A DNA stretch of 59,731 nucleotides, filler included, from Sphacelaria rigidula (lineage: Eukaryota): assembly GCA_964200075.2 (NCBI GenBank). It is 7 parts of 7 records of this genome, joined end to end, with 100 filler letters (N's around TTAATTAATTAA, not from the genome) between each part and the next. Parts side by side here need not be neighbours in the genome. Positions count along the whole stretch, not along the records: positions 8,550 to 16,997 come from CAXNAA020011100.1; 6 more parts are not named here. One strand, written 5' to 3'. The notes beneath the pieces were generated by a model. It saw only the letters and a program-made list of their open reading frames with translations. It searched no databases and was not told where the DNA came from. The position numbers and the translations under genes are program-made. This document shows, piece by piece, positions 3,238 to 59,731 of the stretch. Every line of letters starts with the position of its first letter. The stretch's first letter is position 1.

Positions 3238-4163
3238 CACCGGATCTCACAAACTGGGGATAGATCATTTACTGGGGATGAGAAACCCGGAGGATGAAAA
3301 TCTTCGTATCCACACGAAATCTTCGAAATATGGTTCCATTTCTTCACCTGCTGATCGCTATTGACAACTGCTACACGCTGTACAAATGTGGATTTCGATT
3401 ACCGAAATGTTGGGGTCCTAGGTGAGAAACCAATTTTGGGGAATTTCGGGTGTCCGAACGGACGCCAAGATTGGTTTCGAAATTGGTTTTTCACCCAGGA
3501 CCCCAACATTTCGGTGATCGAAATCAATTTTTCTATAGCGTGTAGCAGTTGTCAATAGCTATCAGGCCGCTTCTTATAGCCTGAAAAAAATTATCTCTGA
3601 GAAATGCCCTTTTGAACCTTTCATCACGGATTATTGGCGGAATACGGGCCTTGGCAAATTTGGCCTCCTCGGAAAGATTTGCCCTATTTTTCACGAGGAT
3701 TCCAGCACGCTTGTCCGATATTTCGTACTTCCAGTTTTACTCTTGGCCAGATTCTGAATTTTTTCAGTCACCTGAAAAAACTTCGAGTTGTCGGCAAGAA
3801 GTACGTATTTTTCCCGACAACTGGACGATTTTCGCGGCGACTGAAAGCATCCAGAAGACGACCAAGAGTAAAACTGGGAGTACGAAATATCGGACAAGCG
3901 CGCTAGAATCCTCGTGAAAAATAGAGCAATTTTTTCCGAGGGGGCCAAATCCGCCAAGGCCCGTATCCCGCCAATAATCCGTGGTGAAAGGTTCCAAAAG
4001 ACAGTTCTCAGACAGATTTTTTTCAGTCTATAAGAAGCGGCCTCAGTAGGTGAAGAAATGGCACCATATATATTTCGAAAATTTCGGGTGGATACGAAGA
4101 TTTTAATCCTTATGGTTTCTCATCCCCAATAAATGATCCATCCCCAATTTGTAAGATCCCGCG
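3238..4163. mobile_element. Foldback MITE (~450 bp without its insert), interrupted by a second MITE
   Basis: 3238-3354 is the reverse complement of 4043-4163, and 3355-3561 is a hairpin. Removing 3565-4045 yields one continuous hairpin. Confidence 0.8.
3565..4042. mobile_element. PIF/Harbinger (Tourist)-like foldback MITE, 478 bp
   Basis: Termini GGCCGCTTCTTATAG...CTATAAGAAGCGGCC, arms pair almost to the centre (~3805), 3-bp TSD TCA at 3562-3564 and 4043-4045. Confidence 0.85.
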
Positions 4164-7539: not shown

Positions 7540-7820
7540 TGGGTGAATTCCGGAACTCCCAGACCGTCGCAAGCCTCACTGTTCACATGTATGTCAAAAT
7601 TTCCTCTCCCACAATCGGTCATGCCGGGACTCGAACCTCATGTATTTTGTTCAGGAAGCAAATATTTTACCTGTTTCATTCACTGGTTCAATGGTCAAAT
7701 GCCCGCTCATGGAACAAGAGATCGGAAGTTCGAGTCTCCAGACGACCGATTATTAGTGAAATTTGAAATGTGAACAGTGAGGCTTGCGAGGGGCAAGAAG
7801 CTCCGGAGATCACTGAAGTA
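7540..7820. repeat. Imperfect foldback (probable MITE)
   Basis: tcgcaagcctcactgttcacat pairs with atgtgaacagtgaggcttgcga; inner atcggtc..gactcgaac pairs with gttcgagtc..gaccgat. Confidence 0.7.
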
Positions 7821-8449: not shown

Positions 8450-8549
8450 NNNNNNNNNNNNNNNNNNNNNNNNNNNNNNNNNNNNNNNNNNNNTTAATTA
8501 ATTAANNNNNNNNNNNNNNNNNNNNNNNNNNNNNNNNNNNNNNNNNNNN
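8450..8549. other. Artificial contig linker (also 16998-17097, 25546-25645, 34093-34192, 42640-42739, 51186-51285)
   Basis: N44 + TTAATTAATTAA (stops in all frames) + N44. Contig lengths are 8449, 8448, 8448, 8447, 8447, 8446, 8446. Confidence 0.98.
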
Positions 8550-8743
8550 CACAATTTTCCAACTCAAAGGCAGCCCTAAATCCGATTTCCCCCCCCCCCC
8601 CCCCCCCCCCACGGGGTAATTGAGATTTCCTAAACAACCAGAGAATACTTCAGTTTGTTTTGCGAAGCACCCTTCAAGTAATGCTGCGCGGATTTTTTTG
8701 CCGTTCGGATAGTGATGGCGCAAATTCTTACGCCGGCTCTTAC

Positions 8744-8845
8744 GTTTACGGCGTTGGCATCCACCTCCTTCATGTTAAGCAGGACCTTGACCACCATTGC
8801 GTCGTTTCTGGCGGCTGCTATGTGCAGCGCCGTCAATCCCGATCC
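8744..8845 (-). CDS. Ankyrin-repeat protein exon
   Basis: Acceptor cctgcag|, 102 nt phase 0-0, GSGLTALHIAAARNDAMVVKVLLNMKEVDANAVN (canonical G-TALH-AA...LL...DAN), donor |gtaaga. Confidence 0.85.
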
Positions 8846-9497
8846 CTGCAGGACACGATTGGAACCAAACTGCGGGTTGTGGTAGTGGCCATGAAGCATG
8901 TAGGCATGGATACAAACCGTAGATGAGCGGGTTGATTGACTTTGCGGAGCTCGTTTATCATGTTGTCGACCGGTGCTTTGGGCACCGTCACGATGGCAAC
9001 CCTATTCGCAGCATTCGATCCGCTGTTTGAGCAGCACAGTGTCGATTTCAGGTGATCGTTGTTTGACGCCAGGTTGAGTGTGTCTATACCCTGATCAGTT
9101 GCGTACGAGTAGCTTCGTGGAAAAGAGGGGTACCGCTCTTGAAAACTATTGTGATCTGTTTTGACAGCAGATCCAGCAAAGGAGAGGTTATCAGATCCCT
9201 CGTCTTGGCGCCAGTTTGATATTCGTTGCGACCAAAGGCATTGATCTGTTCAGCATACTCACCGTCTGATTTGTCGGTGGACGGACGCCCTATACACATG
9301 CTCAGGGCTTCAGAAGACGTCTAGTAGACGATGGGATACAAACTTCCGTACAAAGGTTTTTTGAGGATATGAAATTGTGCACCAAGCTGCCCGCAACGAG
9401 TATCCTTCACTAGATATGGTGTCGCTTATCTACGGTGGTATGAAACGTTTTACGTGTATATTTTCCTCCACGTTCGCTGGATACATCTTGTACTCAC

Positions 9498-9635
9498 GCA
9501 TTTTTTATCGACGGGGCAGCCCTGCGCGAATAGTTCTTCGACGCACCAGGCGTGGCCAGTGGCGGCAGCAGCCAGCACGCGGCCTTCTGGTGGTAGTACA
9601 GCCAACCGACGCAACTCGCGCTCGTTGGCAAATGA
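9498..9635 (-). CDS. Ankyrin-repeat protein, upstream exon
   Basis: Acceptor gtccag|, 138 nt phase 0-0, ...VLAAAATGHAWCVEELFAQGCPVDKKC, donor |gtgagt. Joins in frame to the exon at 8845. Confidence 0.8.
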
Positions 9636-10559
9636 CTGGACGATTAAGAGCAGCACGGCGGGCAACATAAACACCCGCGTGCACGAAAAAGGCAGACCAT
9701 ATCAGAAGTTGTATATAGTACATGCGGTAGCTATCACATCCTATTTAGTATGCGTTGCAGGGGTGGGCGAATTCATTGTCCCAGTTCAGTGTCCTATTGA
9801 GCACCCGTTGACTGCTTTCTTTTGCGTTTCTTCTAGCGATAGCTAAACCCGATTGTGCGACAGAGGGGTACCAAATACAGGACACGCAACACGAGAACAC
9901 GCAACACGAGAACACGCAACACGAGAACGGAGCATTTAAGCATGTTTCAGAAGGGGCACCACAGAGTTCGAAGCAAGGCGCGTGCGCATCTGCTACGCTA
10001 CAGGCATATCCCCATACTGTACTCAAACGCACATGAAGCAAAACTGTTGAAGCCTCAGAAAAGTTGTGAAACTCTGTGCGTGGAACTTTGCTCGTCAAAA
10101 AGAATGTTCGGTCGATCTCGTCTCTCCACGTCTATCATGTACCCCAACTCTAAGGGCTAGGAACGTTCGATGCGGGTTAAGCGAAGTAAGCAGAGGAGGA
10201 CTCAACGGGGTATCGTGACGGGAGACAGTAGGGATTACATGGATCGAAACGTTTACACGTACATCAGAATAGGCTGCAATAAAACCTTCCGTTAAGCCAG
10301 GGTTATCGGTCGAGTACTCGAGCAGGTTTGTTGACCCCGCCCCCCATATGAAAACCGCACAGTCAGACACATTCTGAGCAGATGTAGTGGACGGCCCAAA
10401 TAAATTGTTGTAGCACAGCTGGGCGCGTAAATTTATTTCTGCTTCGTTGCTCTGTCGTATCGGCATGATGAGTCGAAACACGAACACAGGCGGCAACACT
10501 GGCGAGAATCGTGTGGTGACTGTGTGGCCATGACATTCCGGGTACAGCTGACATATGTG

Positions 10560-11080
10560 TATCCGCATCTCTGAAAACATTCAAGCCAACGTCAACGATC
10601 CTTCCTGAGTGTCTCAAAATGATCTGTTGTGAGAAACACGGTTCAGTCGACATCTTCATGACTTGCGTGCCCGTCACTAATCATCATCTTGACTTCCCCT
10701 CCGAGACTGCCCAACCGGTGCTGAAAAGCTAGCACGAGTGCACGAGAATTAATGCTTGGATACAGGTATAGATGATCCATATACTCTGCATTGGTCAGAT
10801 AGACATCTCTGGCAGATGATCCGCTAACTTCTATTGTTGTGTGTACTATCGGGCGGCAACGGCATGCTGGGGTATATGCAGTATATTGCCCAACCATATA
10901 CGGAGCGAGACAGACTCGCAGCGCCAGCCCGTGGGCAATACTTTCACTTCGCGTTCTGCCTATTTTGTCTTGGACGATGACCGGATGGTACTATTCATCA
11001 CCTCAACCCTTGAAGAGCCCATCTTTTTTGTTCCAACATTTTCCCGCTGACAGTCCTACAACTTTCTGAGGAATGATTTT
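10560..11080 (-). pseudogene. Probable pogo/Tc1-type DDE transposase relic
   Basis: KMMISDGHASH resembles the pogo LLILDGHxSH motif. After a stop and frameshift comes QQIIL...VDVGLNVF (cf. LQPLDVGxF). Heavily disrupted. Confidence 0.45.
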
Positions 11081-11845
11081 TGTAAGCGAAGAGATACGCT
11101 GGCAGGACACAGCCTCTTGGCAAGAGTACTGTAGTGAAACATATTCTTGTGACCTATGGGCGTGCGAAGAGTCTTCTGCCGTGCTTGAAGGAGGAGTGTG
11201 TAAGTTTGTTGTGGGTTCATACGTCGTTGTGCTACATGTGCTGAGCCGACATCGTCATACACATGTGGCCACATGTACAGATGGCGCGATTACCGCCATT
11301 GTTTTGCTGTACTGAGACAGCAATGTGCTGCTGGCTGAGGCCTATACACCAAAAACTATGACGCACGTCGCATGTATGGCAAAGGTCTACTTTATACGGG
11401 TGCCATCTCCTCATCAAAATCGATTGTTCTGAACGCCCCCCTCGAAACCATGTCTGCTAAAGTCGAAGCGGGGGGTCGGGTATTCCAAGGGCTAACGTAC
11501 AAACATGAACCTATTACAACCCTACAACCCATAAAGAGCGGGAATGGGTCTAGGAAAACAATCCATTTTCCTCCCAGAGCTTGGGGCGTCCTTTACTCGA
11601 AATTTGGGACGGAAACGAATATTCCAAGAGCAACGGCTTCAATATACTTCCTCCATCCGAACGATTCAGGCGTTCCTTTTCAAACCTTGGACGGCGACCT
11701 CCTGCTCAGCTCCCGTACTCTGCATGACTTCTCCCCCACTACCTGGCGTAGGCCCCTTCGTGCCAAGTAGGTGAGATAGTTGAGCAATAATGCGGGAGCC
11801 GGCGGTCGAGAAGGAGCCACGGTCTTGTTTTGTCGTGGAACCTCT

Positions 11846-12196
11846 GTCTGGGATATCACATATATGGGATATCAATATCTATCTGGGATACCTGTCTGGG
11901 ATACGGGCATCCATCTGAGATGTCCATCTGGGATATTAGATTCATGTGAGACGTTCATCTGGAATATGGACATACGTCGGGAATTTGAACGTCTATTCAG
12001 ATAATACATATCTCAGATATATCTCTCAAATGGACATCGCACATGGACATTCCAGATGGATATCCATACTATAGCTGGACGTCCATTCGAGATATGAATA
12101 TCCCAGATTGCCACTATATCCCAAATGGGTGTCCATATCCCAGATGGACATCCCCGATGGATGTGGTATCCCAGATGAATATACCGGATGGATAAG
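11846..12196. repeat. Foldback built from short CCATCTGGGATAT-like units
   Basis: Left half repeats (cca)tctgggata; right half repeats tatcccagatgg; orientation switches near 12010. Confidence 0.75.
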
Positions 12197-12247
12197 ATGA
12201 TCTGAAAGGAAGTTGAACGATAATGCAAGGGGTCGCTGTCTCAGGCT

Positions 12248-12503
12248 GAGGGATGCTACGGTAGGGGTGCACAAATATTTTCTGAGGTTAGAATTGTTTG
12301 GAGCCCTGTACCTCATGCCAAACACGACTTATGAATTATGTGAGAGTACGCCAGGATTGCTTTTCCATTGTGCTAGGGATGTCCCGAATAAATTTTCAAA
12401 CGGGGGTGCCCTGACCCATATTCTCGTGCATCTAGAATCTCTAGGAGCCCCTGAATCAGACAAGATTTCGGGCAAAATGTGCGCTCCTAGCGTAGCATCG
12501 CTC
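12248..12503. mobile_element. 256-bp MITE with GAG..CTC termini and 4-bp TSD (Sola2-like)
   Basis: 26-bp TIR gagggatgctacggtaggggtgcaca / tgtgcgctcctagcgtagcatcgctc, TSD GGCT on both sides. Sister copies at 44858-45114 and 13111-15186. Confidence 0.85.
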
Positions 12504-13410
12504 GGCTTCAAAAGGAAACCCGAAACATTCCGGCACAAAATGGGAGCAACAACCTTACCACCGTTTTCGTTGCAAGATGCGTTACCTTCACAAATGCCTA
12601 GTAAAAAATCCTCGGGATTCGCAGAAGAAAATGTAAGGTGTCACGAGACCCAATATCGTTCCACAATACAAGGTTTATATATGAGTACTTCTCACTTCAT
12701 AGCTTATAGGTAGCGGGTGCGGGAGGACCGGAGTCCACTTGATGTACAGATGAGGGTCCCGCACAAGCTTTTTGTCGTTCTCACGCTGGGTAAGGCACTC
12801 CCCTCTCGCCAAGATACGCTTCAGGCCCTGCCTTCAGATCGAGATGCACGTATGACGGGGGAGGGAACAGTGTAGTAGCAGAGAGTAATGTTATGCGGAG
12901 CAACACTTTGTTCATGACGTGGATAGACCCATGCCACGGATCCGGAGAGAGCATAGCACACCAAGTGAGCACAACCCTCTTTTCTGCAACACCTATGCTC
13001 TTCAGAGAATATGTCTGCTGTTGACCAGGTGAATTATCTATACTTGGCCTATTTCATTTACATATTACGATGCAAGAACAAATATACCCCGAAAACTTGA
13101 CGCTCGGCCGGAGTCATACCACGGTACAGGTTCACAAAAGATTTCTCAGGCTTAAATTGTGAGGAGCCCCTTATGTCATCCGAAAAACGACCTTTAAAAT
13201 ATGTGAGAGCACGCCACGATCAGCACTCTAATGGGTTAGGGACATCTCGAATGGAGCAATGCCATGGGGGGGTGCACATTTCCCCCCCCCGAGGCTCCCT
13301 GCTGTAGGAGCCTCTCGATGACAAATATGTGAACCTTAGTGTGCAGCCTTAGAAAACTTTTCACACGCCGGACAGCTCAACTCAGGTTAGCACGAATTAA
13401 CTCTTTTCCG

Positions 13411-13768
13411 CATAACTCACCTGTGAGTTATAGCAACATAACTCAGCGATGCACATTCTGGCCGGGTGAGTTATACAGCATAACTCAGCGATGCAAAATC
13501 TGGCTGGGTGAGTTATACTACATAAGTCAGCGGTGCACATTCTGACCGGATGTGTTATAGAAAAGTCAGCGGTGCACATTCTGGTCGGGCGAATCATAGA
13601 AGATACTCAGCGGTGCATATCTGGATCAAGTGAGTTATAGAAGATAACTCAGCGGTGCGTATTCTGATCGAGTGTGTCATAGAGGATAACTCAGCGGTGC
13701 ATATTCAGGTCAGGTGAGTTATGAAGGGGATAGGTCATGGCTGCAAAATCTGACCGGGTGATTTATAC
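13411..13768 (+). repeat. 42-bp tandem array, ~8 units
   Basis: Consensus GATAACTCAGCGGTGCACATTCTGGCCGGGTGAGTTATAGAA. Confidence 0.9.
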
Positions 13769-13883
13769 CATTATTCACGATAGCATACAGTAACTAATCA
13801 TTTGAAAAAAGAAAAGAACGTGAACCTCACTCCTGTGTTACGAGTTCTGGGCACAGAGACGAGATATTTGCCCCTCATTACGG

Positions 13884-14356
13884 CCTGTGACGATTTATAG
13901 ACAACCGATTAGACTACCGTACAGTCAGCGCTGACTGTACGGTAGTCTAATCGGTTGCCTATAAATCGCCACAAAACTTAGTTGTGGGGGTTCGACCCCC
14001 GTCACTTTCCCTCCGAGGAGGGCATCTCCCCTTGCCAGCGCTGTTCAACTGTTCGCGCTCACGGTATCGATCAAATGTTGCCACACGTATCCAGTCGGAG
14101 TTACTCATCTCCCCCATTGATTTCCAGAGTGTGCACTGAGGTCCCTAGCAGTCAACTCGGGGATTGAACTCTCTCCCATCACCCTCTTTTTTTACCGGAA
14201 GTAGGATTTCCCTCTTTTTCTTCAAAGAAAGTGCACCCGACGGGAATCGAACCAGCGGCTAACTTTTGTGACGATTGATAGGCACCCGATTAGACTACCG
14301 TACAGTCAGCGCTGACTGTACGGTAGTCTAATCGGGTGCCTATCAATCGTCACAGG
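13884..14356. other. Cassette bounded by two 88-bp palindromes with inward-facing tRNA-like Pol III boxes
   Basis: Palindromes at 13886-13973 (42/44 pairs) and 14267-14354 (44/44). A-box TAGTCTAATCGG plus B-box GGTTCGA on opposite strands. Confidence 0.8.
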
Positions 14357-14580
14357 TCCTGCATTATGTACTCGCGTAACAGTATAATATGTGTTCATGT
14401 TACACCCGCGGCAGTACTTAATTTTTATTATGCAGATCTACCCCGAGGTTTCTCATGCTACATGCACCGGTAGATGTGTCACGTGATCACGTATGTCTAC
14501 TTACACACGTGACTAGTGTCGACCCCTGTGTTCCACCTGTTGTTCCGGTCGGGTGAGTTGTACTGTGTAACCCATTTTCC

Positions 14581-15000
14581 GATAACTCAGCTGTGAGTTT
14601 GCAAAATAACTGGGTGGTGCATATTTTGGTGAAGGTGAGAGTTATAGAAGATAACTCAGCGATGTACATTCCGACCGGGTGAGTTATGTAGAAGATAACT
14701 CAGCGGTGCATTTTCTGGCCGAGTGAATTGTAGAAGATAACCCAGCGGTGCACATTCTGGCCGGGTGGGTTATAGAAGATAACTGGGCGGTGCATATTCT
14801 GGCCGGGTGAGTTATATTGAAGAATACTCAGCGGTGCACATTCTGGCCGGGTGAGATATAGAAGATAACTCAGCCGTGCACATTCTGGTTGGGTGAGTTA
14901 TAGAAGATAGCTCAGCGGTGCATATTCTGGCCGGGTAACTTATAGAAGATAAGTCAGCGGTGCATATTTTCGGCTGGAGAGTGATACAGCATAACTGAGT
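14581..15000 (+). repeat. 42-bp tandem array, ~9 units, same orientation as 13411-13768
   Basis: Same consensus unit. Confidence 0.9.
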
Positions 15001-16035
15001 TAACTCATGAGTTGTCCGACGTGTGAAAACGTTTGGACTGAAAAGTGCACCCCTACCGTGGCATCACTCAATGGCTCTCAACACGGGAATGTCCTTAGCC
15101 ATATTCTTATCTAGCTCCTAATTTTAGAAGCCCCTCAATGAGAAGTATCTAGGCTCAAATGCGCAATCCGTACGGTGGCATAGCTCGTCATATCGTGCGA
15201 GCAAGTAATAATATCAATAGCTTCCCAGTGTCAGTCGTAGCGGCCGGTCATTTTTCTTCGCCGGGTACAACATGTGGTCCTCCTGCAGGGAAGCGACCTG
15301 TGATGCAGAGTGTTATCTTGTTTGCAGTGGGTGTCATGCGAGGAGGATATTATCATTAGCATGGCGTAGACGGTTTTCATGTTTTGAGATAAAAATTAGG
15401 GCAATATACAAAAAAGGGTAGCGCATTTTTCGCTTTGGGGCGCGGTGCTGCACGCTGGCTCAGCACCTCGAAAACACGTTCCAGCGCTCCAGCCCCACGC
15501 CAAGGGTTCCTGGGCAGCATATCCGACCATGTTTTTCACTTTCGCAAGTGTTACTGGGCTGAACTGACGCGCCGAAGATGAGAGCCTGTGAGAGTACCCT
15601 TTTTTGTGAGCAAAACAGGAGGGTACACCCCGCTCTCTGCTAAAAAATTATATCTGCCCTTTTTTGTTCTATTGTTGTCCCTTTCCTGTCAAGTGTTTTG
15701 TGAAGTGGTGACCGTATCGCCGTCTCAGCACAAATTACGCCGAGCCACAACCATAAACATTTTCGGTAAAACTACACCCCGCCAAGAAAAGCCGAAACCC
15801 AACGACCAGAAGAGTGTAGCCCCCCCTGTTGGTTGGCCCGAAGACCCGGAAGATCCAATGATGCATACAGGTCTCTCTTGTGTGCCGGACCTCGCGAAGA
15901 TCCGACGAACACGGGTGAACATCTTGCCGACACACCAGCCCGTACGGCATCACGCGGGGGCGGCAACGTCAGACCGTTGCCGGATCTGCGATTTGCGGCT
16001 CGGAAACGGAGATGGACACCGACCGGATTTCGGAT

Positions 16036-16997
16036 TGGAGCAAGGACGCCTGAACCCAACGCCGTAGACTGTGCAATCAGCTATCTTCCTCTAATCGCAA
16101 AACACGCACCCTCCGACCACAACTCGGAATACCCGAAGCTGTGAGACCGACGCGCCACACCCCAAGCAACACGTACAGAAAACCTTCAGATTATCATTAG
16201 CAGCAAAGGTCAACACGCTACACCGCCGCCGAGCAGTGGCAATGCCCCCCACGAATGGTATTATGCTGCAAGGCGGCGCCGATCATTCATCTAACAGCAA
16301 ATTGTTCACCTCGGTCCTCCCCCACAGAAGAGGAGATGCACCTGCTCTGAATATCGATACATTATGGAAGGATCACAGACGTGGGCCAGATCTGTGCCGT
16401 AGCATGCACCGCCTCGTGTACACAGTCAAATGTCGACTATTCCGTTGTTCATGTATGTTGCCCTGTTTACCCTGTGCATATTCTGCATGCAGTCATACAG
16501 GACGAAGTCCAGTGAGCGTACCGTATGCACAAGTTTGACTCTTGTCAACACAGACACGCCTCGCATAGGGTCAGATGGACGATGCTGCATCAGGGTTTCA
16601 TAATAGCCATTTCATCACTGCACAGATGCCTTTTTTTCAAAAGCATGTGGGTATATATATATATATATCGGGCGTATGTGTACAAGGCATTTCCGACAAT
16701 TCCCGACCGGTGCTGACCCTCTAATCCTGCAGACTGTGACGCCAGCCACAAGACTCAGCGCGTGTGCGAAATGTCTCCGCTGCAAACGACGGCAAGCAAC
16801 AAAAAGCCTCTTCCCTCCGCCCTCCATCGAATACAATCCGTGTGGCACAACGTCGCTTGAGCCATGCGGTTACATTGGCGCGTCGGTCTCACAGCTTCGG
16901 GTATTCCGAGTTGTGGTCGGAGGGTGCGTGTTTTGCGATTAGAGGAAGATAGCTGATTGCACAGTCTACGGCGTTGGAGTCAGGCGTTCTTGCTCCA
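16036..16997. repeat. Long, young inverted repeat (arms 16036-16157 and 16876-16997, truncated by the contig end)
   Basis: 122-bp arms with 3 mismatches by eye and a 718-bp spacer. Confidence 0.9.
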
Positions 16998-19667
16998 NNN
17001 NNNNNNNNNNNNNNNNNNNNNNNNNNNNNNNNNNNNNNNNNTTAATTAATTAANNNNNNNNNNNNNNNNNNNNNNNNNNNNNNNNNNNNNNNNNNNNGTA
17101 TTCAGACCCCACCCCCCCCCAGCCGCTCCTCGTCCTCCCCACCCCGCCCTTTCCCGACCTATGTCCATGCCTCCCCCCCCCCCCCCCCCACGTCTGATCC
17201 TACTCACATACGACCGAACACAGCTCGCGGCGGTATTGGTGATGGCGTTGCTGGCCCGCATATTTGGACAGTGGCCCTTTCGACCAGCGACATATCCCCC
17301 CGCGCCTAAGGTCAGCACCAACGGGCACGCACAAGTGCCCGGCGACGCAGTGAGCATAACACAAGAAAAGGCCGTGCAACTCGTGGATGGATGACGCCAG
17401 GAGCAAGAGGGCTGGGCGGGCGAGACACCGGAGATTTGACCTACGCATGGCCTGTCCCGAACTCTGGTGAAGACCTTCAACGCTTTTGAGATGGGTGTGG
17501 CCCCCAGGGTAGTTTTAGTTCCCCGGCTGAAGGGATTTGAGCGGTTCGGCCCATTGTAAACAAGTTGTCGCGCATTTTCTCTCAACAGCGTCCCTCCGCT
17601 CTCCGTGGATGTGCAGGTGCGATGGCAGGCACGATCATGCCCTGCGCTTCAATCAGTCTCTGGTATTTTGGCGTGTCTGTTGCGCGTGTTAGTCTATATT
17701 TGTGATATGACTATTTTTACGGCCGTAGTAGAGGAGTAAGAGCGCTGTGTGGCGTGATACGGCTGAGGGTTTACCCCGTGTATGCGTAAGCCTGCTTATG
17801 GCTAGTTGGAGGAACGTGGATTGAGATTCTTCGAAATGGCGCACAGGTAATCGCCAAAAAAACGTGTGTGCTATTTTTTCTGCGTGTTGTTGACTGTGGT
17901 GGGGCAAGGGTTTTGCTGCATACCCTCGTGCGCACATATGTAGATACAAAAGAAGAATGGATAGTGTACCCTATGACTTGTATCACATCGCGTGGGAAAC
18001 TTCCGTGTGATGGATAGTTCGGTGTGCCCATGCGTTGTTCCTGAGGGGTCGACCCTTCCAGACATTGACCCGATGTTGACGAGTTATGGGTCGCTCAGTG
18101 TACCCCCTCAAAACATTAAAACCTGCCTCGTATTTGGGCTCAGGTAGCGCTCGGAGCGCGCACATCCCATCCCGCGAGGTGGGGACGGTTTGCAGCAGTC
18201 GACAGTTGTAGCATCGCTGACCGTTGTCTTCCATCCGCTGGTATTTCGCGCGAAATCTTCATCTTCACTCCAGAGGCTTGCAGGTTCTTTTGACCTCGCT
18301 CCCAAATGCCACGGGATTTAGTGGGTCGGGAACATAGCGTCGACGTCACTGTCCTGCCGTCATATTTTCAATGCACAGCACTTTATGGAGGAGGGCGTTG
18401 TGGGCGAGAGTCCCGTGCGAATGAAAATGTACTGTTTTCAGGGTGTAATGTACATACACGTAACTGCGTTAGTGGTTTCGCGGCAAGATTAATCGACCAT
18501 CCGATCTTTGTTACCCGAAGTTGTGTCATGGTGTGAGGAATGTCCACCGTCGAACGCTTTTCTACATCGAAGGGTCCTGTATGGTTTGGTCTGATTGTGT
18601 GAAATAAATTGGTGATGCCAAGGTCGATATTAGTGAGAGAGCGCATCGCACGCTAATGGCTGTTATTTCGTCAAGAGGGGATGACAGGATTGATGTGACA
18701 GGAGCGCGGGAGATGATTTTTTTTCTTGTTTCCTGGTGCGTTGGCAGTTGTCACGGTTGGTTATGCCAAGTGCTTTGTGGATAATGGGCTGTCAACACTA
18801 ACTGATCCGCTACGAGTCATTATCCAGAGGTGGTTACAAGATGGACGCGCACAAGTTAGTGAACGGCAACTTTCGCTGAAGGAATCTCGGAGGATGGGGA
18901 AATGTCGAAATGAATGAAAGGAGAGAAGAAACAGCCAGAACCTTAAGAGAAAACACGAAGAAGAGAAAGGAGAATAATAGGCGAGACATGAGCAAGAATA
19001 AGGGCGCTAGGCTGAGATGTTCCGTTTCGTAGCCCGGGCAGGCGTCCCTCTACTGTGTCGACTATTTGAAGCTTTGCCGTTCGGAGTATCTCCCGGTGCT
19101 TGTTTATTTCAAGCCAAACAGGACACCGCTTGCTTGGGCTCTCTTCGCCGTGTTGGGGTTTCTTGGCGGAATCGAGTAAGTAAGGCTAGAATATGACATG
19201 TGGGCGTACAAAAGCCAAGAAGGTTGTTTCTCACTGGAGGAAACAACGACTGGTCGAATGAATGTTCAAGCCCACACCATGCTGGCAAAAATGACTAAAA
19301 ACAGGTGGAAATATCAAGACATCACGTCGTGATTAAACTGCCGCTGTGGATGATACTCGGAAGTTGACTTCCGACTCATTCTACGATAGGTGGGGGGAGG
19401 GGGGTTGATTCCACGAAAGACGGGCTTATAAATGCTTCAGACGACCTAGCACACTCGCGGTACGCTTGTATTTGAGTAAAAGCAGTGTCAAGCGGTATGA
19501 ATGAGCATCATTTATGGGAAGCAAGCGCGTCTGAATAACCGTTGCTGCTATTAACGACGATTTCAAGTAGAATTTCGTGGAAGAAAACGGCGCACCCCCC
19601 CCCCCGTAGTAGCATGACTCTTCCAATACAACAGTAGTCCTCGTGATTCTGTGCGCGCCAGTAAGTC

Positions 19668-24676: not shown

Positions 24677-25259
24677 TGTTCTGCGAATGACGGGACTATC
24701 GGCGCACGGAAACGAATTTTGAATTAAGCCTTCGAACGCCCATGCTCACTGTTACGAGATTTCGTTTTGCTGACTGTCCCGCGAGTGTGTAGAGGAAGGT
24801 TTTGTAGGCGTAGCCGCCGCGCACTAGTGATCCAAGTGGCAACATCAATAGCCAGTGTACCGCATGTCTTCACCCAAAGATTGCTCCACATCTAGCCACG
24901 CGAGATTTGGGGGCATAGCAACTAACAGCTGCCAAACCATGGTAGTCGGTCCAAGCGGTTCGAACGCTGACCATCAAACTTCGTGTTTCCCTCAATTTTT
25001 GAGGTGTCTATCGGTGGGATCTTTCAAAGGCGGCTGTGAAAATCGAAAGCAATCTTGATCTGCTCTTCAGACCAGCGGGCCAATCACACCACTCAAAATA
25101 AGTTTCGATTTCGATTTTTATGGGTTTGTTTTTGCTGTAGTAGAACATGCCCTCAGTCGAGGGAAGTTCAAGGTTACGGGTTCGAATCCCGAAAAATGTA
25201 TCATGAGCAGAATCTGGTTTCCGTCGGTAATGACGTAAGGACGGGGGGGGGGAAGAAAC

Positions 25260-25438: not shown

Positions 25439-25761
25439 ACGAGTCGGCGCGATGTCAGAATGCTGATGCAGTCCTCAGCAGCACAATATCACGTACGACT
25501 GGGGGGGGGGGGGGCGTACGCATTTTTTTCTTGCCTTACTCACCTNNNNNNNNNNNNNNNNNNNNNNNNNNNNNNNNNNNNNNNNNNNNTTAATTAATTA
25601 ANNNNNNNNNNNNNNNNNNNNNNNNNNNNNNNNNNNNNNNNNNNNCCCCCACCCACCCCCATCCAAAAAGGAGATCGGGAACAAGCAAAAAATCAAAACG
25701 ACAAACAAAAAAGACACGCCCCCCCCCCCCCCCCCCTCCCACGCAAAACAAAACCCTACAG

Positions 25762-33076: not shown

Positions 33077-34272
33077 ATAATGACGATAATTCTTTTCATC
33101 GCTTGTGCGTTTGCACGAGAAAACTCTTGCCGCACAGGGTCAAGAAAGCCATATCAGTCCGGTGATGTCTGCACCAACACAGCAGTGGATCCATGAGAAG
33201 GAGACAGAATTATACGCCAAAATCACCCCCGCCTCATTGCCGGTATTGTCGCCAATAGACAACTGCCCCTTGACGGCCACCTTCGTTTCTGAATATTATC
33301 TCCAGCTGACAGTTCAGAGGAACCGACGAGTAAAGGGCGTTCCCTTTCAGGCGAGGACGGGGGGCAGGGGCAGGGACAGGGGGCTCTCGTGATACATTTA
33401 ATTTGTGGGATGGTTCACTGTGTTCCACTGCTGATGGCCTGGTGTCGCACGTTGTGACGGTCAAGCTGTACTTGATCATTCCTGCAACGATCACTCAAAC
33501 TAAACGCACACGAGAAGGGCGGGATGTCTGCTCTCTGCCCGATTTTGCGACCTACCTGGCTCATCGTGCCTCGCGGAGATCGCCGCACACAGTTGTCGTT
33601 TAGCATAGAGCAGCTACAGAAGCAATTGTTCATGTGTCTTGAGCAATCGCCAAGTCGTTCCTCACGCACACGTTACAGAACAAAGTTTGATTGCACGTGG
33701 TGCTCATCATCTCGTACGCTATATTCCCAGTCATGAGTTACCTAGCGCGGGGGACGTGCGAGGAGGTTGGTGTGTCGGTATCATGTGTTGTTATTCGTGT
33801 CTGATATGTTTGTGCGAAACAGGGAATTGCAGCCGAATCCCCCCCCCCCGCCCCCCTACAGCGATGATGAGACACCCATGAGGCAGTGTATGAGCCGTGG
33901 CTGTCTCTGAAAGTGGCGATACCAGGAAATAAAGCAATGTATTGTAGGCTGCCATCCAAATGCAAGATAGTCAGTAGGCTTCGGCCCGAACAATCTTAGC
34001 AGGATGCAGCTCACCCTCCACGCGACTCGCCGAACAAACCACGGCGCTTCGCGCTTGGTGACTAAGTGCGTGTGCCTGGTCCGGCGAAAACCNNNNNNNN
34101 NNNNNNNNNNNNNNNNNNNNNNNNNNNNNNNNNNNNTTAATTAATTAANNNNNNNNNNNNNNNNNNNNNNNNNNNNNNNNNNNNNNNNNNNNGTTCACAG
34201 TGATATGCTTACATCGGATTCATTCAGGGAACTGGGGAAGCTGTGGTGTGAGCAACTTCTAGCAGCTTTCAA

Positions 34273-40069: not shown

Positions 40070-40347
40070 TTTCAACTACAAAACTGTGCTTTCCCTGACG
40101 TGAAGTCATGACAAACGACTTTTATATGGACGGCGATCTCATCCCCCACGACCTCCCTGAAAAAAATTTGGGGGAGTTTCCAGCCTTCCGCGCCCTCAAA
40201 GGGCGCGCAAAATTTCATTTGTCGCCTCGATTCCGGGTTTAAAAAGGCACACTTTTTTTTAGCCCAAAAATGGTCCTCTCGCACATACCCTCTGGGGAAA
40301 CGGAAGACGGCAACCCCCCCCCCCCCCCCCCCCCCCCCAAAAAATTT

Positions 40348-40382
<35 letters not shown>

Positions 40383-40635
40383 TGTGTTCCAGAAAAAGAC
40401 CATTTGCAATTNNNNNNNNNNACACGCGAAACACACCCGTCCTCTCTGACAAACAACGAACCCACGCACGGCCCCACAACGACATATGGAAACCGAACAC
40501 CCCCCCCCCCCCCCCCCCCCCCGAAATAATTTTTGGGGGGTCGGGGAGGATGGGTCGGGGAGGATGATGTCGTCCATGAAAAAGTCATTTGGCATTACTT
40601 AAGGTCGGGAAGCACCGTTATTTTGGAGTTGAACA
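40070..40635. repeat. Foldback element with poly-C/AT/poly-G palindromic subunits
   Basis: 40070-40160 is inverted relative to 40545-40635. The Cn-A/T-Gn motif occurs at ~40155, 40315-40381 and 40500-40540. N10 gap at 40412-40421. Confidence 0.7.
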
Positions 40636-40709: not shown

Positions 40710-41556
40710 CCCTTGGACAGCGAGAGTAGATCATCTGTTGAATCGGTATTACTTCCACTTGGAAAAATATGCGTAGTACAGATTGGCTACGTTCGCGGTC
40801 TAAGGCCGCTCCTTATAACGGACAAGAATTGAAAATCTGGGAAAGTACCTTTTTTGAGCTTTCACGTCGTTTTACGCCCCAAAAGAGAGGCAGGCGGAGT
40901 TTGAAACCTTGGAATGACTTGATCTACTGCATGAGGCGGTTCCAGGACATTTTCCCGTTTTCCCGTGGCCACAGTTTTCACTTTGGCCGAACACGTGTTT
41001 TCGCCCAAGAACGGTAAAAAAATAGTCAAATGTAAAAGAAATTGGCACATTTCTCTGGACTTTGACTGTTTTTCACGGTTCTTGTGCAAAAATACTTGTT
41101 TGGCCGAAATAAAAACTGTGGCCACGGGAAAACGGGAAAATGTCCTGGAACCGCCTCATGTAGTAGAGCAAGTCATTCGAAGGTGTCAAACTTCGTCTGA
41201 CTCTCTTTTGGGGCGTAAAACGACGTAAATACTTCAAAAAGGTACTTCCCCAGATTTTCAATTCTTGTCTGTTATAAGTAGCGGCCTAACAAGAACTTCG
41301 TCCAAAAACGGTGAAGGAAAGTGAAGTCCAGAGAAAAGTAGCGTTCTTGGGAAAAAGTTATTGTTTGGCCAAAATGAAAACTGCAGCCACTGGAAAACGG
41401 CGCAATGTCCTGGAACCGCCTCATGTAGTAGAGCAAGTCATTCCAAGCTGTCAAACTCCGCCCAGCTCTCTTTTGGAACGTAAAACGTCGTAAAAGCTCC
41501 AAAAACACACTTTTCCAGATTTTTATTTTTGTCTGTTATGAGGAGCGGCCGAAGGG
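40710..41556. mobile_element. ~100-bp piggyBac-like MITE split 3 bp from its right end by Harbinger-like MITEs
   Basis: 40710-40803 aligns with 34273-34368; the missing GGG|TTAA reappears at 41554-41560. Confidence 0.75.
40804..41286. mobile_element. PIF/Harbinger-like foldback MITE, 483 bp, followed by a half copy (41290-41550)
   Basis: Termini GGCCGCTCCTTATAAC / GTTATAAGTAGCGGCC, TSD TAA at 40801-40803 and 41287-41289. Confidence 0.85.
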
Positions 41557-44500
41557 TTAAATAATTACGATACTTGAAATCACGACTTATCAGATCGGAA
41601 TTTTACTTTTCCATCGCACATTTTCGATCGAAGAATGATGTGCTTGTAGACCATCTCTCATGGCAGTCACCAATCTCGATTTTTTCGAGCATCGGGAGAA
41701 AAAAATGAGGCATTCACGATCTCGCCATGGTTCTCCTCGATTTTCTCGAAAAATCGGGGGAAATTACTCCGAGATTGTGACTCTCCCCGATTTTTTGAGG
41801 TGACGCACGTGCATCGACGTATGATGGTAGAGTACGAGGCGTTTGATATTTTTGCAACAGCAGCAGAAGACAGTCTCGTGACAGTGCGGGGCGTGCCTAC
41901 TGCCCGCGTCAGCTGTTGGCGCAGGCTCACACGGGGTTTGGCAAGTCGACGAAAAGTGCTGACGCCGTACCCTGAGGCGATGGTAACATCTTATGCTGCT
42001 CTGCGCTGCCATAAGTATCACTATTATAACGAACGCTACTGTACTCTCCTAGCCTGTTGTCGCTGTACTCGAGGGGTGATGTACGGCACTGCGCTGCTGA
42101 ACTCTGCTCGCGCACTGTTTGTTCACTATTCTGGCAATACCGAATGTGCCATCATGTACTACCGCACGACATTATCATGTCCTGTGTACTGATGGAGTGT
42201 CCTGCACTGTATCACCCTAGGGTACCAAGGTACGACACTGTACTCGAAGGATTAGTCATTGCCTGCCTGCCTGCTCTCCGGCTTCATGCACGAGTACGCA
42301 ATACCACACTCATGCAATAAATGACCGTCTGTGTACAGAACTGTTTCACAAATCTGTGATACTGTCTGTACCATAAAACGGCCCCCCCGATCTTGATTTC
42401 GCGAATTGGAATTGTCTCATAAAATCGAGATCCGTTGCTATAAAAGATTGCACGGTCAAGACAAATAATGATTCGTCAGGAAATTACTTGGTTTTAGTAT
42501 AATAAGTTGACTCGTGATGAATGCATCCCCATGACTCATTTCAGCGTTACACCCCAGGTACACGCAGCCCAGACACGTGGAATGCCGCAAAAGTTGCGTG
42601 GGACACCCCCTGGACCAGCGGTCAACTTTCCCCCCCCTTNNNNNNNNNNNNNNNNNNNNNNNNNNNNNNNNNNNNNNNNNNNNTTAATTAATTAANNNNN
42701 NNNNNNNNNNNNNNNNNNNNNNNNNNNNNNNNNNNNNNNGACCCCCTCCCCCCCCTCCCCCCCCCCCGCCACCCTGTCGGGCATGAGCGAGGGTTTGTTC
42801 CTCGTGCTGGCGCAGCCCGAGGGGGGGGTGCGTTATCGCAGGACACGGGATCGGCGCGCTCCCACTTTTTTTCCTGTGGCGTAGAGTAACAAGAGTGCTC
42901 ACCCGACTTACTTCTCTCCATTCCTCGACGTACTGAATATGACGCGTCACGGGTTCACCTCCACAGGTAACTTCTTCCGAATAAGAGCTTGTCCTCGGTA
43001 CTTCTACTACAAAAAGTTCACAAGTCGGGTTGCCCACTTGAACCTCATCTCGAAGTTAAACTTCAATTCGCACAATTTTCTGTTATGGTATATTAGTCAT
43101 CACATATTTGCATGCGCATGAAGTGACTCAACTGGATGCTTGCTCGAGACCACGAAACATATCGCCTGTCTGTAAGCCAGTTGAGACGCCTAATGCCGAG
43201 AACCCCAACACTATACCGGTATGTTTGTAATATGGTGCTTCCAACCGGGACTATTGTGTCGGCTGTTGTCATTCGTGACGTATTGATCACCCCTCTTGCA
43301 ATTTTCCGAAATGCGCTTTTTCAATGAAGCATCAGCCACGGTGATGTTTCGGTCCCCATATATGAAAGTTCGTTGTTCGCCTCAAACGAGATCCCCGCAT
43401 GTGATGAAGAATTTTGCTGTCTGAGAATGACGAATGAACGAACTGATCCTCGGTCAATCCCGTGTGCGCTTGAACGCGCTGTCAGCTGTGTGTATCCTAC
43501 GTCACCTGAAGATGCGTGTCCACAGCGTTAGCGCAGCGGTTATTGCCAAACGACTGAGTTTGATGTTTGGGGTACACCCGTAACAGCGGTTGCAGCTTTT
43601 GCGGTGTTCATACTGCTACCGTACAGTGAGCATGAAAAATCCGTATAATCTATACATTTTACAGTATAACTGCGGATGATTCGAAAGTTCAACTGACCGC
43701 GGTTCCTCCATCACTCACAGTTCATGTTTGAAGAACTGGGCGATGTGATTAGTCAACTTTGCCCTGCCATAACAAGCTGTAACCGATGGAGGAAAAGGAA
43801 ATGATGGCTGATGCTGATAACACCGGGCTTCCCGCTTGAAGTGATTTAACGGTTTACTGGATGACGTGAGGATGACGCTTGGCCCATGCTGCATGTGGGT
43901 TAGATTTAAATTCGTGAACCGTCACTCGCTACTGTGAAACGTGGGACTGATTGTGCAGCCCGAGATATACCGAACAGATGCGCTGATGCTGTCGCTTTGA
44001 GTTAAGTTACTGCATCCATACAGCGCTTATTCTTGATCACGTGAAGCCGCGTTTTTACGGCATCTCGTGTCTGCAATAAGCGCACACATGAATATCTATA
44101 TCCTGGGGTGCAGGGTTGCCGTTGCAATGCTGCCCGCTTGATTTGGAGCTTGCTGTGCCCTGTTAAAAATCGGAAATACCGTACACCATGCTGCCCGGAT
44201 CAAACTTTTCAAATACTGTACTGTCTGTCGCTGTTGAATTGGCATGAAAGCGGGCCATCTGCTCTGTGTGTGTCCCGTCACTAAACATGAGTTTTGCTCA
44301 ACGCTTGCACAGTGCACGACCCAGGCCGATACCCCATCTTCTTTTAACCTGATGCGGCGTACTGTTGTCATTTTAATGCTACCAGTTAACCCTCACCACT
44401 ATCCTACATCAATCGTGCCTTCCTCTTCGTTGACCCAAATCTAAGCACTCCCTGTACATTTTACCATACTTTTTTTCAGATGGAATAGGGGTGGTCTCCC

Positions 44501-51131: not shown

Positions 51132-51576
51132 TCACCACACTTTCAGCGATGGTGCTCAATGACGTTTTTGTCGGCCTTATGCCCCNNNNNNNNNNNNNNN
51201 NNNNNNNNNNNNNNNNNNNNNNNNNNNNNTTAATTAATTAANNNNNNNNNNNNNNNNNNNNNNNNNNNNNNNNNNNNNNNNNNNNCGCGGGGCGGTCGGG
51301 GTGGGGGGGGGGGGGTGGGGGGGGGGGCGGGGTGGGGGGGGGTACTCAGTTGCTTCTTGCCTTAACCGCTCGACCGACCACGCATCCCTTTCGAGACGGA
51401 GCAGTGATACGTATGAGTGAGGGCTGAGTCACACGTGTGAGTGAGGGCTTGGGGAAATATGGCAAAAAACGGTTGTGCCCTCTCGACGGGGGTGGGTGGG
51501 GTGCATTCACAAATACGAATACATAGAGAGGCTAGCTCAGGTGGAAAAAGCGCCGTGGTTATTGACGTTTAACCGC

Positions 51577-51630: not shown

Positions 51631-52222
51631 GATGCATTTGGGTGTTTTTCTCGTTTAAGTATGCATTCAGTACCCGATTGCCATCAGCACATTAATATCG
51701 AAAAACTTTAGTCTGACGAGAGTCGACGCTGTGCGGGAGTGCTGGTCATGATCCAATCCAGGACACCAAAATGTAATGAGGCGTGTATCGGGGGAGAGAT
51801 GCCTAGATTCATTGACCACCACGGACTCGTTCCCGAGGATGCGGACGGAGTTGGAAGTATGACGGCCAAAAACAAAAGTGTGGCGACCGGTGATATTGTT
51901 CCGAGAGGCTGACCCTCGCGCCCCGAAAATTCAGTAGGTTTCGAGAGTAGAGTTGGGGCTATGATTTGGGTATACGTGTAGCATGTCCTCGTTGTTCTTC
52001 GTAGCTTATCTGTGTGTGGGCACAGTTGTTTGCTCTGGGGGGGGGGAACAGTACTGTGATAGAACGCTTGCTGCGAAATCACCGTATCCAAGGTTTAATG
52101 GATGTATTGTGACAGAGGAAACAAACAACAGCACCACCAGCAAGCAAGCAGCAAGCAGCAAGCGATAACAACCCCAACACCTGACCGCCGGTGAAAATCT
52201 GGTAGAGATCGTAGCTCCCCAC

Positions 52223-52344
52223 CTTTCTTGTCCAAACGTCCATGAGATTACTGACATCGGTGCCCGTGGCACTGCTTAGCGCCGCCCAAAGGTCGTCGGA
52301 GCGAGCATTGGCGTAGCTGTGTTTGACCAGATAGTCGTGGATAC
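52223..52344 (-). CDS. M1-family (puromycin-sensitive/alanyl) aminopeptidase, internal exon
   Basis: ctacag|GIHDYLVKHSYANARSDDLWAALSSATGTDVSNLMDVWTRK|gtgggg matches the G..YL....Y.NA...DLW..L....G..V...M..WT segment. Other exons were not found. Confidence 0.85.
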
Positions 52345-52654
52345 CTGTAGGGGGCCACAGAAAGCGTTTGCGGCACCACACATACAAACACACGGGGGTA
52401 TTCATCCACCGTAAATTATGCATTTTCGACTCAACAGACAGGGAGGATCGACGATTGAAGACTAAACATTGAGGATTCACGGCTGGATTCGGAGTGAATG
52501 GGTTGTTGTGCGGTTACCGATTTCAGTTAATTAGTTAGTCAATCAACACCCTTGAAATACAGTCTCGTGGTTTGTGTGTGGAGATGTTGCAAGCCGCGAG
52601 TTTTTTCCCCACCATTTGATTTTATTTAGTGGTTTTCGACAAACAGGAACAAGC

Positions 52655-58897: not shown

Positions 58898-59731
58898 TTA
58901 ACAATCGGAAAATTCTTCGCAAACGCAGCGGCGACGATTGGTATTTCCAGTCCCCAGCCTGCTATGTCGCAAGAAATAACATGAACTAAAATCACAAATC
59001 ATTCTACATTCCGAGGCTACCACATGCACAAGCAGAGTATGTGTACAGTCATCACGTATACTTACAAATCTCCTTCGCGACTCTGTTTCCGCGGTCTCAG
59101 ATGGTCATCAAATCGCACTTGTGTTTTTTTCCTCAGCACCTTTGGCGCCAGACCCTTCTCAGATGGACCCGAGCTGGACCACTGAAAAAAATGGGGATAA
59201 AAATTACTTTCGTGGATACCCTAACATGAAATACAGAAGTTCATTGAGTGTGTGTCGAGGTCACATCACGTTTTCACATCGGTGACACCGTGAGATAGAT
59301 TACTTTGTACCCTTCATGAGCAGATAGTCCCGGGTTCGAACCATAGCCTCCCAAGGGCGTCGAGGTCACAAATCACCTCAAGTTGAGCGGGTGAAACAAA
59401 AAGTCGAGAAATTGGTGGGGGATAAGAAAGAGCTAAATGGTCGACGATCAGGAAGTGGAGCACCCAAACAAACCCATGGACAACTCTTCTGCGGAGACTG
59501 TTGATATCGTCACCGACACGCAAGAGACACGTGAAAAAAGGGAGCCCAAATATACTCCCATGGCTACTCGCAGTCGGCGAAAATCGTTACCTCTACAAAC
59601 ATGTTCTCGCCTAAGATTGCGCGAAAAGAATCGTATAAGAGGGAGGTGAGATGGATACCACCACATGAAGAGGGGGGGGGGGGGGGGGTCCCCATTTGTT
59701 TCTCGTCGCAGGCGTTTGACCGAGGACAAGG

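Follow-up and report, generated by a model that had tools for sequence, protein, structure and literature searches.

The Ginger1 and Ginger2 DNA transposons are described with terminal inverted repeats (TIRs) of 40-270 bp, TGTNR ends and 4-bp duplications, and the long terminal repeats (LTRs) of Gypsy elements share this type of end (PMC2836005). "Snap-back" 5' junctions with reverse-complemented complementary DNA (cDNA) are reported as a low-frequency class in R2-protein-mediated insertion (PMC11331408), and MER6 offers a precedent for a DNA transposon that carries the domain of a short interspersed nuclear element (SINE) (PMC6887750). In addition, template switching between the arms of inverted repeats is a known mutational process that homogenizes the arms (PMC8794818, PMC8604942), which makes symmetric changes explicable without hairpin-end replication. 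Here we analyze a 469-bp cassette (positions 13886-14354) with palindromes at both ends, located in a 59,731-nt stretch of Sphacelaria rigidula DNA (assembly GCA_964200075.2) that we refer to as the window. The cassette is one copy of a repeat family, and the explanation that we favor, to which we give about an even chance, is that it is a non-autonomous DNA transposon of the MITE (miniature inverted-repeat transposable element) type.

The window is composed of seven pieces of 8446-8449 bp joined by 100-bp linkers of the form N44-TTAATTAATTAA-N44 (8450-8549, 16998-17097, 25546-25645, 34093-34192, 42640-42739, and 51186-51285), so features are not readable across the joints and the usable context of the cassette is 8550-16997. 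Evidence on the family comes from Logan contigs of public sequencing runs (X1, X3, X4, and X13) rather than from raw or long reads. X1 and X3 belong to one study, which possibly includes the source sample, so that only X4 and X13 count as independent runs. Stretches without cover in X3 and X13 were left uninterpreted, and since the reading of X13 as RNA is a guess, it was not counted as transcription. Runs with the label "algae metagenome" contain the stretch, and no RNA run is listed for it.

Both ends of the cassette are loop-less palindromes

The cassette ends in palindromes centered at 13929/13930 on the left and 14310/14311 on the right (Table 1). Both ends carry TGTGACGATT, with TGTGA as the outer end of the left palindrome (13886) and TCACA as that of the right (14354). 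The initial annotation had described two 88-bp loop-less palindromes, the left with two mismatches and the right perfect, and comparison of the arms together with shuffled controls reproduced them: the longest perfect loop-less arm was 8 nt in 50 shuffles of the 8.4-kb piece, and a 25-nt arm core had four matches in the window vs none in 100 shuffles. Across the four arms, taken in the order left outer, left inner, right inner, and right outer, only positions 5 (A/G/A/A), 11 (T/T/G/G), 16 (A/G/G/G), and 19 (A/A/C/C) vary. The right palindrome is thus altered at positions 11 and 19 in both of its arms, in agreement with the earlier observation that the palindromes differ at these positions (T vs G and A vs C) and that each difference is present in both arms of its copy.

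The inverted symmetry of the cassette ends covers 98 nt at 93% identity. It had been proposed to reach about 40 bp further inward, and when the left half was globally aligned to the reverse-complemented right half, this extent was borne out, with about 45 nt of additional inverted similarity, but the similarity there is weak, gapped, and of much lower identity. The cassette folds very strongly (z = -18.2); a scan for prokaryote-type promoters and terminators, which is irrelevant to a eukaryote, returned only the hairpin again. In the ORF (open reading frame) listing, the longest ATG ORF within the cassette has 52 aa, with none above this length, and a self-BLAST of 13723-14640 against the window revealed no further copy of the cassette.

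The cassette is absent from paralogous sites

Fifteen X4 contigs diverge from the window to the left of 13885, where their sequence is unrelated (agreement 0.38), and the outer end of the palindrome is therefore the boundary of the family. Three contigs join the two flanks without the cassette, in two forms that represent paralogous sites. In the first form, 13874 is joined to 14356 with 10 letters between them (X1, depth 69.6), and in the second, 13875 is joined to 14390 with 36 letters between them (X1, depth 77.8; X4, depth 23.7). The cassette-free sites have a single AGTC or GATC followed by CTGCAT, while the filled site reads GGCC, cassette, GGTC, and CTGCAT, with flanks that are alike at three of four bases in this one copy of the cassette. 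Judged from these sequences, the 469-bp cassette probably entered, as a whole, one of the three copies of a repeat and created a 4-bp duplication whose two sides now differ at one base. The initial annotation saw no clean target-site duplication, and we amend this claim since, compared with the two cassette-free paralogous forms, GGCC/GGTC reads as a probable 4-bp duplication with one mismatch.

X1 contigs that match the flanks exactly have depths of 42.5-63.9, and the flanking DNA (about 420 bp in 13723-13885 and 14359-14640) interrupts a 42-bp minisatellite that occupies 13423-13722 and 14639-14968 in the same orientation, with about 7 and 8 units, respectively, at 78-82% matches. Each minisatellite unit has a short dyad, GAGTTAT...ATAACTC, and the interruption amounts to about 900 bp when the cassette is included.

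The cassette is one copy of a repeat family

Summed contig depth in X1 is 5128 at 13977 (27 contigs), 5190 at 14277 (22 contigs), and 24186 at 13969 (52 contigs). The tool that reports these sums warns that they are not copy numbers, and the ratios are therefore rough; read in this way, they suggest that left-type and right-type ends number about 90 each and that arms are about four times as numerous. A fourfold excess of arms over end junctions is expected if every element has four arms. The most abundant part of the cassette is 14219-14280, where summed depth in X1 reaches 380,000-650,000, about 100 times that at the junctions of arm and inner flank, which roughly suggests that this block exists in the order of ten thousand copies. 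These contigs show that the cassette is one copy of a repeat family.

Past 14273, 32 contigs in X1 and 36 in X4, which are most of the family contigs, leave the window sequence and continue into a different but visibly homologous 5' half. Since most family contigs take this other course, the form that bears palindromes accounts for about 1-2% by depth and is a minor offshoot of a tRNA-like repeat present in great abundance. Family contigs also connect segments of the cassette in a different order and orientation (13931/14276, 14186/13931, 14245/13903, 14274/13921, and 13945/14130), and the family includes rearranged or differently assembled combinations of modules. A 21-nt stretch of the abundant block also matched two metagenome loci (L001 and L002), which we rejected as chance matches in high-GC, bacterial-looking DNA without a tRNA.

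tRNA-like units begin at the palindrome centers

At 80% of its default threshold, ARAGORN reports three weak cloverleaves in the 469-bp cassette, whereas shuffled cassettes average 0.17 (200 shuffles) and the window as a whole averages 0.54 per kb. The units at 13924-14011 and 14231-14312 start 2-6 nt from the palindrome centers and both read inward. Since the units start at the centers, each palindrome represents the initial 44 nt of a unit duplicated in inverted orientation: at both ends, the inner arm is the 5' half of a degenerate tRNA-like unit, and the outer arm is its inverted copy. Both inner flanks contain an exact, inward-pointing match to GGTTCGANNCC, which we take to be a B-box-like motif. 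It occurs five times in the window vs 0.51 expected, and two of the five occurrences are in the cassette. The others, at 7627-7637 (-), 25179-25189 (+), and 59332-59342 (-), stand in contexts that resemble tRNA fragments and give no default tRNA call; the genome seems to be rich in tRNA-related repeats.

Substitutions shared by both arms of a palindrome

Most family contigs carry T at 14277 (4858 of 5190 by depth in X1) and A at 14285 (2417 of 2682). Since these are the family majority letters, G at position 11 and C at position 19 of the right palindrome are derived and rare, yet both arms carry them. On the other hand, the family majority letter at 13969 (24058 of 24186) restores the symmetry of the left palindrome, which makes the mismatch there a private, single-arm change. 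In this copy of the cassette, we thus count two events that are symmetric and two that hit one arm only. That independent mutations should mirror each other exactly at two positions would be very improbable, which argues for some arm-to-arm copying, and the arms of a palindrome seem to have been copied from one another, either in this copy or in its immediate source. The proposal in the initial annotation that the arms are copied from each other is upheld to this extent, namely at two sites in one copy where letters that are in the minority in the family are present in both arms.

The arms also decay independently, since two changes in the left palindrome are each confined to one arm and the center is crossed by other contigs of the family. 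X13 contigs pass well beyond the center, which is presumably possible for a k-mer assembler only if the arms differ, and copies other than this one therefore appear to be asymmetric. In a separate observation, the octamer GCACCCGA occurs three times within 107 bp (14233-14240, 14282-14289, and 14332-14339 (-)), with four occurrences in the window compared to 1.73 expected. These repeats are formed by three private departures from the family majority, at 14235-14236, at 14285, and at the mirror of the latter, and this cluster may be a trace of templated mutation, as in template switching, or may be due to chance.

A proposed MITE-like transposon with long terminal inverted repeats

Together, these findings lead us to favor, at about even chances, a non-autonomous, non-coding, MITE-like DNA transposon with long TIRs, which would be moved by an integrase-type DDE (Asp-Asp-Glu) enzyme acting in trans and whose arms would be repaired by template switching. 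The TGTGA...TCACA ends, the 4-bp duplication, and the lack of the cassette at two paralogous sites are the signature of a DDE-type insertion. The description of a small non-coding element in the initial annotation holds well here, since the cassette has 469 bp, no ORF above 52 aa, and many copies, and is missing whole from two paralogous sites.

Beyond the anatomy, the repetition, and the insertion described above, we infer an enzyme, an origin, and a role for template switching, which could be connected in three steps. First, a tRNA-like repeat would have acquired the 44+44 palindrome when synthesis folded back (snapped back) at its 5' end. The TGTGA end exposed in this way could have served an integrase-type DDE enzyme acting in trans, and the resulting inverted-repeat element would have spread as cut-and-paste DNA. 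Finally, the identity of the arms would occasionally be restored when, during replication or gap repair, a nascent strand folds into a hairpin and copies the other arm; such intramolecular template switching would yield arm-symmetric substitutions.

Several points weigh against this explanation. The 4-bp duplication is imperfect (GGCC vs GGTC) and is deduced from diverged paralogues rather than from a true empty allele. Its sequence fits neither the CCGG/CCGT target of Ginger1 nor the AT-rich RTATAY target of Ginger2, as reported for these transposons (PMC2836005). Pfam revealed no transposase or autonomous partner in 74 of the 89 listed ORFs of the window, to which this search was confined. 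Over the palindromes, identity between the two ends is 93%, but it drops to about 65-70% in the adjacent 45 nt, which calls for selection on the termini or for an independent origin of each end. By the tool's own warning, contig depths when summed are a poor guide to copy number, and the equality of left and right ends in X1 (5128 vs 5190) does not recur in X4 (1879 vs 3481). As for the tRNA-like origin, ARAGORN at its default setting finds no tRNA in the cassette, and Rfam returns no tRNA match there at E values up to 10. Lastly, the evidence for arm copying consists of two positions in one copy, and template switching is a process that we would carry over to this cassette from the literature.

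If this explanation is true, the cassette documents a route from a retroposon-type (tRNA-like) repeat to a DNA-mobilized inverted-repeat element, in which one fold-back supplies the hairpin and, at the same time, an end that a transposase can use. The genome would then contain a natural set of about a hundred short palindromes, perfect or nearly so, in which arm copying can be weighed against independent decay, a question relevant to the origin and persistence of long perfect hairpins, new small-RNA genes among them. Should the copies show ordinary decay only, the cassette would be one more MITE family.

A bolder version, which we consider distinctly unlikely, is that every move re-creates the outer arm at each end from the inner arm, so that new copies always start perfect and changes in the inner arm become symmetric at once. 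The route could be a hairpin at the transposon end or fold-back priming on a single-stranded intermediate. This would make the cassette a eukaryotic mobile element with self-templated termini, in which a TGTGA end of the integrase type, exposed by chance through a 44-nt fold-back, made a DNA transposon out of a tRNA-like repeat.

Alternative explanations

The alternative that survives best, although we regard it as unlikely, is a retroposed origin, in which tRNA-derived SINE copies arose by target-primed reverse transcription, snap-back of the cDNA 3' end produced the palindromes, and two copies came to lie tail to tail. The palindrome centers are indeed the starts of tRNA-like units with B-box-like motifs, the 14219-14280 block is extremely abundant, the contigs that run past 14273 (32 in X1 and 36 in X4) continue into a homologous 5' half, and snap-back 5' junctions have been described for R2-protein-mediated insertion (PMC11331408). 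However, independent snap-backs would be expected to vary in length, while all four arms have a length of exactly 44 nt and 15 X4 contigs share the outer boundary. A retroposed pair also fits poorly with a cassette that is missing whole from both paralogous sites and is flanked by a duplication of only 4 bp. Where the tails would meet, there is no A-rich or simple-repeat tail, and the center has no inverted similarity. Moreover, an RNA polymerase III transcript from the start of a tRNA-like unit would presumably omit the outer arm.

It is distinctly unlikely, in our view, that the cassette is a composite, in which each 88-bp palindrome is a minimal transposon of two 44-nt termini and two such copies mobilize 293 bp of repeat DNA in the manner of insertion sequences. 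Outward-facing TGTGA/TGTGG ends on both sides of each palindrome would suit such an arrangement, as would the far better conservation of the palindromes between the two ends (93%) than of the adjoining DNA, and the arm depth of 24186 at 13969 is slightly more than four times that at the end junctions, so that some palindromes could be solitary. Neither palindrome has a duplication of its own, though, since the left is bordered by GGCC and AAAC and the right by CTTT and GGTC. In addition, a single tRNA-like unit spans inner arm and inner flank at either end, and the symmetry runs 10 nt beyond the palindromes at high identity, so that arms and inner flanks look contiguous by descent.

A hairpin-RNA locus, whose transcripts would fold into 44-bp duplexes that feed a small-RNA pathway and whose symmetry would be kept by selection, is compatible with any origin, including the transposon explanation, but we find it improbable. 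The very strong folding (z = -18.2) is in its favor, and sub-threshold Rfam matches to microRNA (miRNA) precursors mirror the hairpin shape; the best of them, MIR6149, scores 44.6 bits vs a gathering score of 100, and no Rfam match reaches the gathering score. A selfish repeat better fits the roughly one hundred dispersed copies, the insertion polymorphism among paralogues, and the decay of the left palindrome.

Hairpin-end replication, as put forward in the initial annotation, is quite improbable. It would involve rolling-hairpin ends like parvovirus inverted terminal repeats (ITRs), or telomeres opened by a resolvase, with the outer arm re-synthesized from the inner arm in each cycle. Both termini are palindromic and mutually inverted, with a non-palindromic inverted stretch inside; the derived symmetric changes of the right palindrome fit; and phaeoviruses are reported to encode a conserved telomere resolvase that acts at a palindromic site (PMC13236599). 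On the other hand, this copy is inserted in the chromosome, where it has TG...CA ends and is flanked by a duplication, two changes in the left palindrome affect a single arm each, and X13 contigs that run through the center suggest asymmetric copies. A 22-nt exact arm core had no matches in IMG/VR viral contigs or in metagenome contigs, and Pfam detected no Rep or resolvase gene among the 74 of 89 window ORFs searched. We therefore see no support for the hairpin termini, resolvase partner, and non-transposon replication of the initial annotation, since the copy is chromosomal, has TGTGA...TCACA ends and a 4-bp duplication, and is lacking at two paralogous sites.

Finally, perfect palindromes are a known product of chimeric reads and assemblers, but an assembly fold-back is very unlikely here, close to negligible, because the arms have hundreds of times unique depth and contigs from the runs of three studies cross the palindrome centers (X3 record 22, 14296-14354 with 0 differences; X4 record 25, 13918-14060; X13 record 9, 13888-13968, and record 10, 13908-13966), as judged from contigs only.

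Other features of the window

MITEs that are nearly palindromic are common, and the window has MITE-like elements of this shape from another family, with GGCCGCT(T/C)CTTATA termini, at 3566-4043 and 40803-41287 (also 41339-41528). Their arms are about 216-219 nt long and 84-89% alike, with spacers of 7-47 nt. Further inverted repeats surround the first of them (3235-3331/4070-4166, 97 nt, 88%; 3351-3436/3480-3565, 86 nt, 90%), which suggests nested insertions of hairpin-forming elements. The piece that contains the cassette also has an inverted repeat at 16036-16157/16876-16997 (122 nt, 98% complementary, 718 bp apart), and since its right arm ends exactly at the piece boundary, this element may be cut. 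At 40314-40373 and 40500-40559, long C/G homopolymer runs surround AAAAAATTTTT in a palindrome-like arrangement by a 10-N gap (40412-40421), which may reflect an assembly or sequencing problem. Among the 74 of 89 listed ORFs searched, the only Pfam matches were an ankyrin-repeat exon (8633-9001, -) and a peptidase M1 exon (52082-52513, -), and the nearest relatives of the latter are eukaryotic proteins.

Table 1. Coordinates of the cassette, its parts, and its flanks in the window
Feature	Position	Strand	Description
Left flank	13723-13885	.	Low-copy repeat, ~2-3x unique depth (depth 64-200)
Left putative 4-bp target-site duplication	13882-13885	.	GGCC
Left terminal palindrome	13886-13973	.	44+44 nt, spacer 0, center AGC|GCT, mismatches at arm positions 5 and 16
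Left tRNA-like unit, degenerate	13924-14011	+	Inner arm and inner flank, reads inward from center; ARAGORN at 80% threshold
B-box-like GGTTCGACCCC	13989-13999		Within left tRNA-like unit; motif scan
Cassette interior	13974-14266	.	293 bp, mosaic of blocks differing widely in family abundance (13998-14042, 14098-14158, 14215-14273)
Second weak tRNA-like unit	14148-14237	-	Directly behind the right-hand unit; ARAGORN, relaxed threshold only
Right tRNA-like unit, degenerate	14231-14312	-	Inner arm and inner flank, reads inward from center; ARAGORN at 80% threshold
B-box-like GGTTCGATTCC	14243-14253	-	Within right tRNA-like unit; motif scan
Right terminal palindrome	14267-14354	.	44+44 nt, perfect; G11 and C19 in both arms
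Right putative 4-bp target-site duplication	14355-14358	.	GGTC
Right flank	14359-14640	.	Same low-copy repeat as left flank; then 42-bp minisatellite resumes (14639-14968)

Comparison with known systems

The ITRs of parvoviruses and adeno-associated virus and hairpin telomeres resemble the cassette in having mutually inverted terminal palindromes at both ends, and rolling-hairpin replication with self-templated ends would give arm-symmetric changes. Unlike these systems, the cassette has TG...CA ends, a duplication, and an asymmetric left palindrome, no extrachromosomal form was seen in the contigs, and Pfam showed no Rep or resolvase gene among the window ORFs searched. Helitrons and Helentrons, which have TC...CTRR ends and a short 3' hairpin and insert without a duplication, were rejected in view of the TGTGA...TCACA ends, the inverted symmetry, and the duplication. 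Since the 88-mers are palindromic, they are direct as well as inverted repeats, and the cassette thus has the direct terminal repeats with TG...CA ends and a duplication within the 4-6 bp of terminal-repeat retrotransposons in miniature (TRIMs) and small LTR elements. We rejected a TRIM or LTR retrotransposon because there is no primer-binding site or polypurine tract: the inner flanks are tRNA-sense inward, and neither is purine-rich (judged by eye). As an miRNA or hairpin-RNA gene, the cassette stays below the Rfam gathering score.

With tRNA-derived SINEs, the cassette shares A-box- and B-box-like motifs, a weak cloverleaf from the 5' end of the repeat, and kinship with a very abundant dispersed block. 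It differs from them in that it lacks a tail (none in 13974-14266, be it A-rich or derived from a long interspersed nuclear element) and the variable-length duplications of retroposition, its ends are inverted, it moves whole, and its cloverleaf fails standard detectors. The quasipalindrome template switch is alike in that it makes imperfect inverted repeats perfect and produces compensatory changes in one step, as reported (PMC8794818, PMC8604942, PMC3820800). It is unlike the cassette in being a general mutational process without an element family, which accounts for the symmetry but not for origin or mobility.

Ginger1, Ginger2, and Gypsy LTR ends are closer, with TGTNR...YNACA termini, TIRs of 40-270 bp, and a 4-bp duplication (PMC2836005). 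The cassette has such termini (TGTGA at 13886 and TCACA at 14354) and a putative duplication of fitting length, whereas its target is GGCC/GGTC rather than CCGG/CCGT or RTATAY, Pfam found no transposase among the window ORFs searched, and palindromic TIRs are absent from the consulted portion of the Ginger description (PMC2836005). In the portions consulted of the SINE, foldback/MITE, and brown-algal transposable element (TE) literature, we found no published element in which both TIRs are loop-less palindromes derived from a tRNA-like head. A full-text search for 18-nt arm and center strings returned no papers, and the words palindrom-, foldback, hairpin, MITE, and tRNA do not occur in the main text of an Ectocarpus TE paper (PMC12477816).

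The closest overall resemblance is to MITEs and foldback elements, which are likewise small and non-coding, with long TIRs, many copies, and a strong tendency to form hairpins; they also have a short duplication at the flanks, as the cassette probably does. The TIRs of the cassette extend over 98 nt at 93% identity and more weakly to about 140 nt; the cassette has 469 bp, ORFs of at most 52 aa, and an end-junction depth of about 90 times the flank in X1, a rough figure. What sets it apart is that each TIR is itself a loop-less palindrome, so that the terminal 44 nt occur four times per element, and that identity within the palindromes is 95-100%, compared to 84-89% between the arms of the neighboring MITEs in the window. 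Altogether, we regard the cassette as an unusual form of a familiar type of transposon rather than as a hairpin-ended replicon of a new class.

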